A stretch of 62,542 nt of DNA, filler included, from Alphaproteobacteria bacterium (GTDB lineage Bacteria > Pseudomonadota > Alphaproteobacteria > Caedimonadales > UBA9215): NCBI GenBank assembly GCA_024280495.1. It is 4 parts of 4 records of this genome, joined end to end, with 100 filler letters (N's around TTAATTAATTAA, not from the genome) between each part and the next. Parts side by side here need not be neighbours in the genome. Positions count along the whole stretch, not along the records: positions 25,146 to 52,872 come from JAJRPZ010000041.1; 3 more parts are not named here. One strand, 5' to 3'. Made by a program: the position numbers. Position 1 is the first letter of the stretch; each line of letters starts with the position of its first letter. Below are positions 25,046-31,000 of the stretch, piece after piece.

Positions 25046-28000
25046 NNNNNNNNNNNNNNNNNNNNNNNNNNNNNNNNNNNNNNNNNNNNTTAATTAATTA
25101 ANNNNNNNNNNNNNNNNNNNNNNNNNNNNNNNNNNNNNNNNNNNNAATCTGGTGGGGACGACGCTTATGAAAATCTGCGAGGATTTCTGTGCTCTTATCC
25201 TTACTGCCATCATTGGTAAAAATAATTTCAGAAGGTTTGTCCATCTTATCCAAGACGGCTGTTAAGCGTTTGTACATGGTTTCAAGGCATTCCTGTTCAT
25301 TATATACAGGGATAACGACGGAGAGATAAATATCAGATTTTGATGACATTATTTATCCTTTTTAAATATTTTTTTAAGGGCGAAAATAACCCGATCTTGT
25401 TGTTCATAAGTCATATGAGGGAACAAAGGCAAGCTCATAATACCATCGGAAACCGTTTCTGCCCTTGGAAAATCACCGCGCTTAAAGCCATAGGTACTCT
25501 TATAGTAAGGAAAAAGATGAATGGCAGGAAAGTGTAATCCAGTTCCGATATTTTCTTCTTTTAAGGCTTGCATGAGAGTATCTCGATTAAGACCAGAAGC
25601 ACCTTCATTCACCAGGATGGCATAAATATGAAAAGGATTTTCATTATCATAAGGGGCGTTACCTGGACGTTCAAATTCAGACCATCCTTTAAATGCCTCA
25701 TGATAGCGAGCGGCAAGCTCTTGGCGTTTAGCGTTGTAATTATCTAGTTTTTTTAGTTGAGGAATGCCAATGGAAGCCTGTAAATCTGACATGTTATATT
25801 TATAGCCAGGGGCGATCACATTAAGCGCTTGGTTGCCTTTTTTGCCATAGCGATCCCAAGCATCTTTATCAATGCCGTGAAAACGCATAACGCGCATTTT
25901 TTTCGCTGTTTCTTCGTCATGAACGGCCAAGGCCCCACCTTCAGCCGTGGTCATATTTTTGCATGGGTGAAAACTATAAATTTGAATATCGCCAAAACTA
26001 CCAATTTTTTTATTTTTATAGCTGGTACCAATGGCATGTGCTGCATCTTCGATAATGCGTAAATTATATTTTTTGGCTAACTCATATAAAGGATCAAGGT
26101 CAACGCTGAGTCCTGTCATATGAACGGGCATAATGGCCTTGGTCTTTGGGGTGATGGCTTTTTCGATTTTCGAAATGTTCATATTATAAGTAGTCTCTTC
26201 AAGGTCCACAAAAACTGGTGTGGCCCCTGCATGAACAATACTGTTGACCGTTGAGACAAAAGTCAAAGGTGTCGTGATAACCTCGTCTCCCTCTCCAATA
26301 TCACAGGACAAAAGAGCAAGGTGCAAGCCTGATGTTGCTGAATTCACTGCAATCACATGAGGCGCACCCGTGTAATTTTTGAGGTCAGATTCAAATTGCT
26401 GCACACGAGGGCCCGTTGCAATCCACCCAGATTTCAAACAGGCCATGGCACTATCCAAGACATCTTGATCCAAGCAAGGTGTTGTGAACGGTAAAAAATC
26501 GTCAGGGCCAATTTCAGGTGTGACGAAATTAATATTTGCGGAAATGGGGGTTTCAGGTGCTTCGTGTGACAAGGATAACTCCAATCATAATAATAATTAT
26601 ACCTATAATACGTGTTGGGCTTAGGGTTTCTTGTAGATAACAATACCCCATAAAAGCTGTGAATATATACCCAAGAGATGTCATGGGGTAGGCAACGCTG
26701 ACATCAACCCTGGAGAGAGTTAAGAGCCAAGCTCCCAAGGAAAAAACATAAAGAGAAATGCCACCAAGAAGGAAGGAATTTTGAATGATTTTAAAGAAAA
26801 TAGGTACGACATTTCCAAAGGTAAAGTCAAAGTGCCCAATGGTGAGCATTCCTTTTTTTATGAGGATTTGCGCAGCCGTATTCAGACTCACGGCAAATAA
26901 AATCAACGCCAGGGAAATTGGCGCCATGGAAAAGAAACCAGAAATCATATTTCAACCTTTTTGATAAAGTCGTGACGTCCATGGGTCAAAAATCAAAGAC
27001 CTTGTTCGTTAATATAATATCTTTATCAGATTGAGCAAAAAGATGCAAACCGTTCAAGGAAGGGTAATGTTTGTAAAGATCTTCAAGGGACCATTTTCGC
27101 AAGATTAAATAATAGATTTTTTTGCTTTTAAGGCGTTTTTCAAATTGAGCATCTGTGATCATCCATTCTGAAACATCTTCTACTGTGGTGCCAAAGTGCA
27201 ATTCATTAAATCCTTCAACAACTGTGATACGGCGTCCCGTATAGGGGGGGAGATCTTGATAATAGGTATGCCATGAAATAATGTCATCTTGGGCCTCGAG
27301 AATTTTATTTAATTTTTGCGTAAGGGGGAAAATAGACCTTCCCTCAATATGAACCCATGCTTTATTAAGGGGCAAAAACATGCCCGTAGCCGTACAAAAA
27401 ATTATGACCAAGACGGCCCGCATATTTCCTTTTTTCTGAAAAATAAAGGAAAGAATGATACCAGAAACAAGAGCAATGGTTGTTAGTGCTGCATAGGGCA
27501 TAATATTCATATTGAGGTGTTGTCCCCTAATATAAAGGGCCGTTGGGAGCGCAATGGCAAAAAGAAGAGAAAATAGCTGAAAGAGTCTTATGGGCCAAAC
27601 GTTGTTATTAACACAATTTTCCTCCCAGGTTTTCGTAACACTGCGACCAATAAGAATAGAAAGGGCTGGAAAAATGGGGACTATATAGGGAATGAGTTTT
27701 GAATTTGAGGCTGAAAAAAATATAAAAATGAAGGCGCTCCAAATCAAAAGGAAGGAAAGCGTATGGTGGCGATCAATGCCAGATCTAATAAGTTTAAAAG
27801 CTTGGCTGCATCCTCTATAAAAGTAAGAAATCCAGGGAAAAAAGCCAAAAATCACAACGGGAATAAACATCCAAAAAGGTTGAACGCGACTGTGAGCTGT
27901 GGTGAGGAACCTTAAAATTTGTTCATGGATGATATAAAAATCGAAAAATTCTGGATTACGCAAGTGTGCTAAAACATGCCACGGTAGAGTCAGAGCGAAA

Positions 28001-31000
28001 AAAAGAACAATTCCCACGGGATTAAAAGCAAGCTTGAGCGCCGCCCATTTCTTATGGGTGATCGCCCAAATTAAAATAATTGTACCAGGAAGTGCAATTC
28101 CTATGAGCCCCTTGGTTAACAAAGCACCAGCTGCGAAAATAAAAAAACCCATCAAAAGAATGTATTTTTTAACTTTTTGAGCTTCAAAAACAGCCCCATG
28201 GAAAGAAAATAATGAACATGCAATAAGGGCACTGACGGGCATATCCAGAATCAAAATGCGGCTATGGGCGTAATAAAGAAAGGTGGAAGATAGAACGACA
28301 GAGCTTGCAATACCCACATTTCGACCATAAAAACGCCTAGCATATAAAAACGTTGCAAGGCTACCAAGAAGGGCAAAAAAAGCAGGCCAAAATCGCAAGG
28401 CCCATTCATTAATGCCAAAGGCCTTAATAGAAGTTGTTGTGAGCCACATAACGAGAGGAGGTTTTTCAAAGTATTTCACACCATTTAAGCGTGGTGTAAC
28501 ATAGTCGTCAGTCACAATCATTTGCCGCGGGAGCTCTGTATAACGCCCTTCGTCTGGTACGGAGAGAGGGCGCGTCCCAAGAAAAAAACCAAAGAATAAA
28601 GACGTTAAAATCGTCAACCAAAATAGGTCTTTTACCAGTCGCAGCTTTGTATCTGATTTTTTTTCAAATTGTTTGGTTTGATGCATATTAGAAAGCGTTA
28701 AATATTTTTTACTATTAAGAGCATTATTACCTAATAAGTCCAGTGGAAATCACTTTCAAGAGATTATAGTTGATTAGAAACAAAGCCGTGAATGACTATA
28801 TTAACTTTCGTCACCCACTAATTCTTTTGTTGATTCTAATAACGCGCGACCAAGGTCTGTCATCTGACCATGTTTTTCCACAATGGCAAGACCATCATAA
28901 TACCGTCTTGTATAATTTTCTATTTGCCCCTCAGTAAATTCAGAAGTTAAATGGGTTTGTGCATTATGTGGATAATGAGCTGCTTTTTTGAAAAAATCAA
29001 TCAAGCGCGCCAAAACAAAAACCGCATGATAAATGCCTGATATTGGCCTAGGGTCTTTACGAAGAGGACTTGAAAAAAGTCCATCACCAGAAATAATTTC
29101 ATCATTTGCCATCAGATTGTAAAGATACTGATGTGCCGTTTCATGGATAAGGTAATCCATGGTCATGGGAATATCATGTTTATCGGCAAGGGTTACGAGC
29201 CCTAACAAAGAAAAACTTGAACCCGCGATGAAACGTTTTGAATTAAGAATCAAAACTGCTGAAACGAGAGCCTCACATTCCTTATAATAAACTGGGGAAA
29301 TCTTTTTGATGTCTTCGAATGCTTTCTGTACATAAGATTTCGCACGATCAAAGGCTTCTGGTGTTGACGATTGAACCGTTGATTTCTCTGGAAATTCAGA
29401 AACAAGAACGTTTTTACAAGAATTTTCAAGACTTTTTGGAATCACTCCATGGTTAAAGGAGAAAACTTCGAAAAGTGCGATGTTATCAGGTACTGAAAAC
29501 TGACAAAATAGATTTTTTACTTTTTGGTAATTTTCGTCTTCAATGGCCTTGATAAGCTCATCGTTTAAAAGGGAAAATAAAAAAAGTGTTTCAGGGTCTT
29601 TTTTAAGTTTTTGAAGGCTATCTATAAAATGCTCTTGCTCGACAACCGACAGCAGTTCTGATGCTGCTTCGAGAATATGAGATAAACCATCAAATAAGCA
29701 GTTCTGATTTTCTTCTACCAAAAAAAAAGCGCGATCCCCGCAGGGCCGCGCATTTGAATAAGAAAACATTACTACACTACTGTTGTAGATAGATTGTTTT
29801 TATTTGAAAAAATATTAGAAAGAGAATTTTTTTTCATTTTTTTGTCTCCAATTATTTGTAAACTTACAGGGTTATTTTTGTTTTTGTCAGAAAAATTTCT
29901 GATAAGGCATAAAATAAATCATTTATCATCTTTGCACCAGCATTTTTTTTAGATGCAAAGAAAAAAACATCTACAGACGGAGGAGGGAGATCTGGCAATA
30001 TAGTTACTAAGCCAGCGTCAAAAGAAAAATCTGCACCAGTTACTGAGATGCCATATCCCAAAACCGTTGCATAAAAGACACACATTGCTGAATTGACAAC
30101 CAAACTTGGCTCTAAAATTTGTCCCCCTGATTTTAAATGCCAATCTACATTGCCATTAAAATTATTTTTGGTCAAATAGAATCCTATAAGCTTATGATCT
30201 TTTAAATCCTCAAAGGATTTGGGAACACCATATTTCTCCAAATATTTTGGGCTTGCTAATAAACGCATTTCAAAACTATAAATCTTTTTCTTAACAACAA
30301 GACCAGGATCATCTATTGTTGGCAGCAATGCCACGTCTGCATCAGTCTTAGAAAGCGCGATACTCTTATTAGTGGTCTCAATGAGGATATTAACATCAGG
30401 ATATTTTTCAATAAAACCTCTCAAGCGTGGCATCAACCATAAGCTTGTCATTCCAGTTGTTGTAATAATCTTAATAGACTTTTTAATAGATTCTTTGTTA
30501 TGTTTTACACGACTCACTGCATTTTCAATGATCATATAAGAATCCACAATGGATTCATAAAGTTCACGCCCCACATCGGTGAGTTCAACACCGCTTTTAA
30601 GGCGTTTCATCAAAACCTTATTTAAATCATGTTCAAGGGCAGTTAAAGATTTAGTGACCGTCGACGTTGCAAGGCCTAATTTCTTGGCAGCTCTTGAAAA
30701 AGAGCCACATCTAATGACTTCAACAAAATACTGTAAAGGTTCCGAATAAATCACTTGGAAAATTTCCTTACCTAAAAATTACTGTTGATATCTACTATTC
30801 TATCGGGTTTGAACCTTTTGAACCAGCTCATTCGGCAATTTTTTTATAGTCAAGGAGTGCAGCAACAAAGTGTAACCGTAAAAATGATTAACTATAGAGG
30901 TAGTCACATCAAAGGTGACGCGATATAGTATGATTAGATTTTAAACTCTAAAAGATACATGTTTCATATGCCAATGCCTTCCCAAAAAAATATCCCGTGG

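Follow-up and report, generated by a model that had tools for sequence, protein, structure and literature searches.

Ara4N shields bacteria from polymyxin-type antibiotics, and two enzymes called obligatory for its transfer seem to be missing from the genome described here. By the published rule, only formylated UDP-Ara4N is a substrate of ArnC, and ArnD must follow; the E. coli ArnC is reported to use the formylated donor only (PMC12690121). Enterobacteria encode the pathway in arnBCADTEF, with the formyltransferase fused to the decarboxylase. In the split cluster of the Burkholderia type, arnT, a flippase gene, arnB, arnC, arnA1, arnA2 and BCAL1935/arnD stand together (gene names as in B. 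cenocepacia; PMC4993015). Such seven-gene versions predominate among the 80 loci nearest to ours. The GalN/GlcN lipid A systems of Francisella (FlmF2-NaxD-FlmK) and Bordetella (lgm) start from an N-acetyl sugar and require a NaxD/YdjC deacetylase. They share with the present locus a GT2 enzyme, an ArnT-like transferase and the undecaprenyl carrier, FlmK being an ArnT ortholog (PMC4402001). The GtrA/GtrB/Gtr systems also combine a GT2 enzyme (ArnC has the GtrB fold and scores 237 bits to GtrB), a small flippase and a GT-C transferase, and use no masking; however, the donor of GtrB is neutral UDP-glucose, whereas a free amino pentose would fill that role here. In the literature searched, which covered few subscription journals, we met no description of an arn operon that lacks both formyltransferase and ArnD, nor an enzyme assay or lipid study on Caedimonadales. 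Hereafter, forms with N-acyl masking genes are called masked and those without them unmasked.

The window, that is, the whole stretch of DNA analysed (62,542 nucleotides, filler included), carries four ORFs between 25146 and 28686, all on the minus strand and in the places given by the genome-wide survey's note. The first, arnT (26986..28686), encodes a 566-aa lipid A Ara4N transferase with PMT_2 and Arnt_C domains, and its single NCBIfam match was NF009784 (207 bits, cut-off 567). It is followed by one arnF/arnE-like gene for an SMR/EamA flippase (26553..26948; 131 aa), which matched ArnF (NF002816, 58 bits) and ArnE (NF011625, 37 bits) below their cut-offs and is 43% identical to its Piscirickettsia counterpart. 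The PLP aminotransferase gene arnB (25349..26584) encodes at most 411 aa counted from a TTG, with the real start probably lying downstream; its top family was ArnB (NF008658, 423 bits, cut-off 631), with PseC close behind (371 bits), and it is 44% identical to ArnB of E. coli and 55% to that of Piscirickettsia. Last, the first 68 codons of arnC (25146..25349; top match NF007986) are 85% identical to the ArnC N terminus of a congener, G020, and are truncated by the start of contig C64; to the left of 25146 lie spacer and then the unrelated contig C61. All four proteins remained under their NCBIfam cut-offs, as did the masked-type ArnC that was tested.

Outside the window, contig C82 carries the remainder of arnC (C82:2-727) and a stand-alone ArnA decarboxylase of 348 aa (C82:733-1779). 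The latter reached 512 bits with NF008872 (cut-off 294), and its 52% identity to E. coli ArnA is confined to residues 317-650, in agreement with the operon end that had been claimed. Synteny suggests that C64 continues on C82. Because alignment to the G020 ArnC shows that only 22 residues are missing between the contig ends, the gap is too small to conceal a gene; with intact gene order in 12 other genomes, an artefact of the contig break was ruled out. Public sequencing data yielded three contig sets with scattered pieces only, none spanning the break, and no RNA data set was found among the listed runs. Upstream of arnT, a gap of 114 bp contains a sigma-70-like site (28763..28792, minus strand) that matches the consensus at 10 of 12 positions and is, by that match, a weak candidate for the operon promoter; nine such sites were observed as compared to 4.2 +/- 2.0 in shuffles.

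The locus resembles the Burkholderia-type cluster in its T-F-B-C-A2 order, its stand-alone NF008872 decarboxylase and its single flippase gene. In contrast to that cluster, arnA1 and arnD are absent from both operon and genome, arnC directly precedes the decarboxylase gene, and ArnC carries valine or tyrosine rather than leucine at position 220. Joint loss of arnA1 and arnD from a seven-gene split operon (arnT-F-B-C-A1-A2-D) best explains the five-gene form. Of the enterobacterial proteins, ArnB (44%), ArnC (44-45%), the ArnA decarboxylase domain (52%), ArnT (29%) and ArnE have homologs here, and the catalytic residues of ArnC are retained; unlike arnBCADTEF, however, the operon lacks ArnD and a fused formyltransferase, includes a single flippase gene and is ordered differently.

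We found the decarboxylase ortholog in 17 of 23 Caedimonadales genomes, reproducing the earlier count. The uninterrupted T-F-B-C-A(dec) order, previously noted in G012, G018, G014 and G020, extends to 12 of the 16 other loci. In G002, G003 and G006 the block consists of B-C-A(dec) and arnT is located at another place, the locus of G011 is divided over two contigs, and arnB of G022 is broken into two ORFs. The arnB gene lies within the operon in 16 of the 17 genomes, G011 being interrupted by contig ends. That the five-gene form is kept in most Caedimonadales, as had been proposed, was confirmed, but it also occurs outside the order.

A profile built from 17 split-operon ArnD sequences gave no true match in the 23 genomes, while it detected ArnD of G027 (434 bits) and of E. 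coli (288 bits); a lone partial match of 17 bits proved to be a PdaB-like deacetylase. The enterobacterial model NF011923 also found none in the five genomes searched. Since the split-operon profile also detects E. coli ArnD, we ruled out that ArnD had been overlooked by the enterobacterial model. Likewise, the ArnA formyltransferase is absent from all 23 genomes, whose best profile scores (136-179 bits) are at the level of Fmt, as compared to 468 and 364 bits for the controls. Both absences claimed in the genome-wide survey's note thus held up, as did its count of 14 arn genomes out of 17 with a single formyltransferase match, Fmt; the extra matches are PurU in G000 and G001 and a 224-aa sugar formyltransferase in G021.

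Deacylase searches covered five families. YdjC was found in none of five genomes, with a positive E. coli control; three of these are Caedimonadales, so the reported absence from 23 genomes was borne out for the three that were rechecked. PF01522 deacetylases occur in six of 23 genomes, five of them among the 17 with arn genes, and none is ArnD-like. As substitutes for ArnD they were rejected, being PdaB/PgdA-, PgaB/IcaB- or PuuE-like, patchy in distribution and not close to the operon. PIG-L domains were detected in three of five genomes. A WecD-like GNAT scored at best 45 bits in Caedimonadales, as a partial match, as compared to 245-367 bits in 11 carriers, seven of which had served to build the profile. 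G018 (100% complete, four contigs) has all five genes and one formyltransferase match, and gave no match for ArnD, PF01522, YdjC, PIG-L or the WecD-like GNAT. Regarding precursors and acceptor, lpxB is present in 22 of 23 genomes, and lpxA, lpxB and lpxD in this bin. An NDP-sugar dehydrogenase scored above the cut-off in 21 of 23 genomes, this bin excepted; neither galU nor ugd was found here, though their usual neighbours stand mid-contig.

The five genes probably constitute a complete, shortened Ara4N pathway, in which ArnC would transfer free UDP-Ara4N directly. The stand-alone decarboxylase would convert UDP-glucuronate into UDP-4-keto-pentose, and ArnB would aminate the latter to UDP-L-Ara4N. 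A specificity-shifted ArnC would then place the free amino sugar directly onto undecaprenyl phosphate, the lone SMR flippase would carry the lipid-linked sugar across the inner membrane, and ArnT would add Ara4N to its acceptor, either lipid A or inner core, so that an N-acyl mask would be neither put on nor taken off. In contrast to the GalN/GlcN systems, the donor would come from the decarboxylase and ArnB, and YdjC is absent from the five genomes tested. For Caedimonadales, both product and acceptor are predicted. The eight decarboxylase columns that we take to be catalytic (S433, E434, R460, Y463, K467, N492, R535 and R619) are invariant in 17 of 17 sequences. The K188 and D160 columns of ArnB do not vary either, and ArnB gives no sign of divergence from its counterparts in masked operons. 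Residues reportedly required in ArnT (R-Y, YFEKP, an Arg and a Glu near the C terminus; PMC5377068) are intact in 13 of 13 Caedimonadales ArnTs, Arg and Glu being assigned by alignment. ArnC D48, N77, D100, D102, Q104, R128, R131, R137 and R205 are invariant across all groups; DxD together with the four arginines is present in all 15 full-length Caedimonadales ArnCs, and the closest PDB chains are ArnC structures.

The same T-F-B-C-A(dec) operon was found in two Piscirickettsia genomes, G403 and G237, in a survey in which four genomes went unscored. Their ArnCs are 99% and 97% identical to P0061, a sequence named P. salmonis, and both ArnD and the ArnA formyltransferase are missing. Each has three formyltransferase-family matches, which in G237 were assigned to Fmt, PurU and PurN. 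A peptide deformylase gene stands beside fmt in G237. According to a second-hand report, P. salmonis lipid A bears Ara4N (PMC13543480). The metabolic model iPS584 of this species consumes two Und-P-Ara4N per LPS and lists the genes PSLF89_706-710; in it, the formyltransferase step is assigned to the decarboxylase gene and the deformylase step has no gene (PMC5732189). The 78 ArnC carriers surveyed in Gammaproteobacteria fall into 19 with formyltransferase plus ArnD, 11 with the WecD-like GNAT plus ArnD, 47 without any of these three, and one with a formyltransferase at a contig end. Thus, a dedicated acylase accompanies ArnD in 30 of 30 genomes and is lacking in 47 of the 48 without ArnD. Genomes positive for ArnD and negative for formyltransferase were dismissed as support for moonlighting by Fmt, as all 11 bear the GNAT.

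Columns that separate unmasked from masked forms number seven in ArnC, two in ArnB and one each in the decarboxylase and ArnT. Group-specific changes thus pile up in the sole enzyme whose specificity must shift, which supports direct transfer. Leu220, near the acceptor groove, is present in 80 of 80 masked but in only 1 of 65 unmasked forms, a pattern that is not an independent test given one to three origins; among independent pairs, one of two was concordant and the other showed no difference (sign test p 1, no power). G225 retains Leu220 while ArnD, formyltransferase and GNAT are all absent. In the tree, unmasked ArnCs are nested within masked ones, and a single origin was neither demonstrated nor rejected (AU p 0.44); for the decarboxylase, a quick tree was used. 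Because the Piscirickettsia ArnC belongs to a gamma clade (E159/Y220) and not to the Caedimonadales clade (N98/T185/V220; the C82 part of arnC encodes N98, T185 and V220-T221), the chemistry is carried over by analogy. An AlphaFold model of ArnC was discarded (mean pLDDT 57, below 50 over residues 183-242). We infer that ArnC acts on free UDP-Ara4N and that the altered residues may play a part. The Piscirickettsia operon, the co-occurrence of acylase and ArnD, and the divergence of ArnC lend support to the earlier prediction that Ara4N is transferred with neither formylation nor deformylation.

It is unlikely that the detour persists in other hands, with Fmt (or PurN/PurU) formylating UDP-Ara4N and a peptide deformylase or an unrecognised amidohydrolase unmasking the lipid-linked sugar. 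Fmt is present in all 23 Caedimonadales and homologous to the ArnA domain, yet each ArnD genome retains a dedicated acylase instead of Fmt alone. The ArnC of E. coli is reported to depend on formylation and to reject unformylated UDP-Ara4N (PMC12690121), which counts against direct transfer; in genomes devoid of masking genes, however, ArnC is different. Deletion of arnD in E. coli reportedly leads to accumulation of Und-P-Ara4FN (PMC8495848), so that the deformylases of that species are no stand-in. The PIG-L and PF01522 proteins noted above are conceivable substitutes; however, no searched deacylase family is common to unmasked genomes, G018 lacks all of them, and in Piscirickettsia the PF01522 match is PuuE-like and the PIG-L gene adjoins a NagK-like kinase.

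We consider it still less probable that the cargo is a neutral pentose (xylose or arabinose, made by the bifunctional synthase) or another mask-free sugar, destined for LPS or a different surface glycan. While NF008872 is named a bifunctional UDP-4-keto-pentose/UDP-xylose synthase and ArnB scores nearly equally with PseC, the operon includes arnB almost throughout Caedimonadales, with the PLP lysine kept and no group-specific divergence. Eight unmasked gamma loci and G225 have T, C and A(dec) with no arnB in the retrieved stretch; against this, the motifs required in ArnT are kept, the enzyme family is that of masked operons, and Ara4N is reported, second-hand, in P. salmonis. That the operon is a decaying remnant of reduced symbiont genomes, with no product, is very improbable. 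In its favour, six members of the order do without the decarboxylase, which shows that the pathway can be dispensed with, the arnB of G022 is in two pieces, and this bin, without galU and ugd, sits on a long branch (0.66). Against it, genes are intact, with conserved order and invariant catalytic residues, over four families of the order, C stands next to A(dec) in 40 of the 47 gamma genomes of the unmasked kind, the window proteins are 56-85% identical to G020 orthologs (66% for pgm, 84% for ppa), and the Ara4N report for P. salmonis again applies.

If the shortened pathway is real, formylation would be a trait of particular ArnC lineages and not a chemical necessity, and a natural unmasked route would overturn the generality of the published rule. 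ArnA is pursued as a polymyxin-adjuvant target (PMC12650200). Somewhat favoured is the broader reading that there are three donor solutions: N-formyl masking, N-acetyl masking by a WecD-like acetyltransferase and an ArnD deacetylase, and no masking, the last comprising Caedimonadales, Piscirickettsia, Fastidiosibacteraceae and other small-genome gamma lineages, with an ArnC that would accept the free amine. The putative acetyl-masked form would be a second variant, seen here in 11 genomes plus L084; we came across no description of it, though no search aimed at its name was made. Why the detour evolved would become testable with natural enzymes from cultured species of Facilibium, Fastidiosibacter, Cysteiniphilum and Piscirickettsia, and annotations and models that invent missing steps, such as iPS584, would be corrected. 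Caedimonadales live in association with hosts, and the pathway would predict a cationic LPS coat in them. In these host-dwelling bacteria, the outer membrane seems to receive a coat of Ara4N through a shorter route, which seems to occur in the fish pathogen P. salmonis as well.

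Base 25146 of the window, which consists of four contigs joined with spacers, is the first base of contig C64. Based on open reading frames and family or domain matches, this contig carries on the minus strand arnT (26986-28686), a gene for a 131-amino acid SMR/EamA flippase (26553-26948), arnB (25349-26584) and, at the contig start (25146 onward), the first 68 codons of arnC, the latter recognized by family match. The remaining part of arnC opens C82, a contig outside the window, and is followed by a 348-amino acid protein above the NF008872 cut-off (512 bits), whose alignment to E. 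coli ArnA covers residues 317-650 alone, at 52% identity. Between the two contig ends, 22 residues are absent as compared to ArnC of G020, another member of the order. None of the contigs in the public sets compared spans the break, and synteny points to the joining of the arn genes of C64 and C82. The five-gene operon devoid of formyltransferase and ArnD deformylase, proposed in the genome-wide survey's note, is real, with arnT, flippase, arnB, and arnC in the window and the stand-alone ArnA decarboxylase on C82.

The two genes immediately preceding arnT on its strand encode a protein with an aKG-HExxH-type peptide beta-hydroxylase domain (28801-29769, minus; TIGR04267, above cut-off at 71 bits) and a LysR regulator (29864-30754, minus); relatives carry different genes at this place. 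The same-strand genes 3' of the decarboxylase (L001:1918-5328, on C82) we take from their translations to be an MlaE/MlaF/MlaD-like ABC cluster with a lipoprotein, and close to the C82 end there is presumably a short IS-like transposase fragment (11258-11590).

A decarboxylase ortholog was found in 17 of 23 Caedimonadales genomes. The five genes follow one another without interruption in 12 of the 16 other loci, while three keep arnB-arnC-decarboxylase with arnT elsewhere and one is cut by a contig end. Because enterobacterial models can miss genes of split operons, we built our own profiles from 17 ArnD and 14 ArnA1 (UDP-Ara4N formyltransferase) proteins of the nearest loci. The sole ArnD match in the 23 genomes was a partial one of 17 bits, whereas a control genome reached 434 and E. 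coli ArnD itself 288; the best ArnA1 scores were 136-179 bits in 23/23 genomes versus 468 in the control. Both absences claimed in the note are borne out, and the gene order is kept in most arn-bearing members of the order, the form being also present outside it.

The top formyltransferase match is Fmt by classification in the genome studied here, while those of the other genomes were assigned to it by score. Where arn-bearing genomes gave a second match, it was PurU (this genome and G001) or a 224-amino acid sugar formyltransferase (G021). The PurU fragment of this genome (C2:3238-3531) is truncated by the contig end. Six of the 23 genomes encode PF01522 proteins, which are PdaB/PgdA- or PgaB-like (three of six classed); among five genomes tested, YdjC was found in none and PIG-L in three. 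G018 is rated 100% complete; it carries all five genes and a single formyltransferase match, and no ArnD, PF01522, YdjC, or PIG-L deacylase was found in it. In the order, lpxB is present in 22/23 genomes and an NDP-sugar dehydrogenase above cut-off in 21/23. In congeners, galU and ugd sit between ppa and pgm; neither was found in our bin, which is 89% complete, so that loss and non-assembly are indistinguishable, and its ppa (C44:36877) and pgm (C68:20680) are both mid-contig with other genes. The arnB of G022 consists of two overlapping frames (L023:6655-7906), owing to a frameshift or an assembly error. Three members carry a second, more distant ArnT-like gene (L351, G011; L352, G003; L353, G002), 29-31% identical to that of the window.

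Most of the 80 nearest loci are seven-gene operons. Among them, arnC immediately precedes the decarboxylase in Fastidiosibacter lacustris, Cysteiniphilum litorale, Facilibium subflavum, and several MAGs. Nine genomes with this adjacency gave no ArnD and no ArnA1-level match; in two of them Fmt was missing as well, which suggests that they are incomplete. A search for homologs further recovered the ArnC of Piscirickettsia salmonis (P0061), matched at 99% and 97% in two genomes. Both carry all five genes in the same order, and the ArnD profile found nothing in either; each has three formyltransferase-family matches, which in G237 are Fmt, PurU, and PurN. In G237, the PF01522 match is PuuE-like and the PIG-L gene adjoins a NagK-like kinase. 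The lipid A of P. salmonis, whose operon has this composition, is reported second-hand to bear Ara4N (PMC13543480); Vinogradov in 2013 is said to have reported Ara4N by NMR. The iPS584 metabolic model, based on published LPS composition, uses two Und-P-Ara4N per LPS and lists PSLF89_706-710, with PSLF89_710 given both decarboxylation and formylation and the deformylase left without a gene (PMC5732189). Reported polymyxin B MICs are 8-16 ug/mL (PMC8972169).

The profiles were then applied to 78 genomes of Gammaproteobacteria that encode a close ArnC; 58 came from a 400-genome sample, and the order of Facilibium contributed 20 out of 65. Some had been met above, two of three Fastidiosibacteraceae among them; as the cut-offs favour P0061 relatives, the proportions are not frequencies. 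ArnD was present in 30. An ArnA1-type formyltransferase accompanies it in 19, scoring above 350 bits in 17 and 252-259 bits in the other two. The remaining 11 all encode a WecD-like GNAT of ~240 amino acids (at least 245 bits; 7 of the 11 contributed to the profile), whose best family, NF008212, is below cut-off. It adjoins arn genes in nine of the 11 and occurs in 0/19 formyl genomes. WecD/RffC-like GNAT genes lie beside arnC/arnD at L084:7215-7928, L298:8189-8902 (G311), L295:5241-5960 (G285), L297:692-1405 (G331), L302:923-1648 (G117), L317:5788-6522 (G359), L321:919-1686 (G279), and L301:1056-1841 (G275). The gene content suggests that these operons probably mask Ara4N by N-acetylation, with ArnD as the partner enzyme. 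ArnD is missing from 48 genomes. In 47 of them both acylases are missing too, their GNAT scores not exceeding 103, while in the remaining genome a formyltransferase lies at the end of a contig. No Caedimonadales genome scored above 45 bits with this GNAT profile.

In eight unmasked gamma loci, arnT, arnC, and the decarboxylase occur with no arnB in the fetched stretch (L254, G322; L256, G482; L257, G125; L258, G336; L259, G152; L260, G110; L201, G041; L326, G102); arnB may be elsewhere, or a neutral pentose may be moved. In the gamma loci L078 and L121, the decarboxylase gene immediately follows arnB, and the stretch contains no arnC; of the arn genes, the alphaproteobacterial L068 and L069 show just the decarboxylase and arnD, adjacent to each other.

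We consider it likely that in the unmasked operons UDP-GlcA is decarboxylated and aminated, and that free Ara4N is loaded on Und-P by ArnC, flipped, and transferred by ArnT to lipid A or core. The motifs shown to be required in ArnT (PMC5377068) are retained. For the central step, we infer free UDP-Ara4N as the ArnC substrate. In the textbook view, formylation serves to pull the unfavourable ArnB equilibrium. Deformylation prevents ArnC reversal (PMC8495848). Here, the pull would have to come from ArnC, flipping, and ArnT. Fmt together with some deformylase could moonlight, so that the detour still runs; however, ArnD is accompanied by a dedicated acylase in 30/30 gamma genomes, which argues against Fmt as a stand-in and makes this unlikely. 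Still less probable is the movement of a neutral pentose, given the product reported for P. salmonis; the same report supports the prediction of Ara4N transfer without the detour, at the level of the product. Decay of the operon is the least credible reading.

Residues with a proposed catalytic role in the Salmonella enzyme (PMC12690121) do not vary in any ArnC group of our alignment. The columns that separate unmasked from masked forms number seven in ArnC, compared with two in ArnB; the decarboxylase and ArnT have a single such column apiece. ArnC position 220 is leucine in 68/68 formyl and 12/12 acetyl forms and in E. coli, while the unmasked forms have valine (18/18 alpha) or tyrosine (46/47 gamma). 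Caedimonadales carry N98, T/S185, and G188 (15/15), and position 159 is glutamate in 42/47 unmasked gamma and acidic in no masked form. Counted on the alignment, positions 220 and 185 match F215 and K180 of GtrB; alanine at F215 compromises activity (PMC4728340), K180 is part of the Und-P headgroup pocket (PMC12698845), and residue 220 is placed in interface helix 2 (bioRxiv 2024.07.30.605912). The group-specific changes lie near the acceptor groove, but no structure ties them to the sugar C4 substituent; the predicted ArnC structure was too poor around them to be used.

Near-duplicate lineages were removed before tree building (45, 98, and 52 rows kept). In the trees, the unmasked ArnCs fall within the masked ones. 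Without the seven diagnostic columns three changes are needed, one of them in G225, a gamma genome that keeps Leu220 and is sister to an acetyl form. A single origin excluding G225 was not rejected (p-AU 0.44, 52 rows), and the Leu220 test, with two independent pairs, gave no statistical support.

In its working, the operon resembles the Burkholderia-type arn cluster (PMC4993015). Recent papers call formylation required, and the accessible text of a survey of ArnA domain fusions (PMC12650200) does not mention the five-gene form; PMC4052302 and PMC4402001 added little. A literature search, with most subscription journals and bioRxiv supplements outside its scope, found neither the unmasked nor the acetyl form described, which leaves absence from print unproven. 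Because two defining features of the canonical Ara4N pathway are missing, the five-gene form is classed as a variant rather than a member. The unmasked form is wider than earlier reported, and a probable third, acetyl-masked variant stands beside it.
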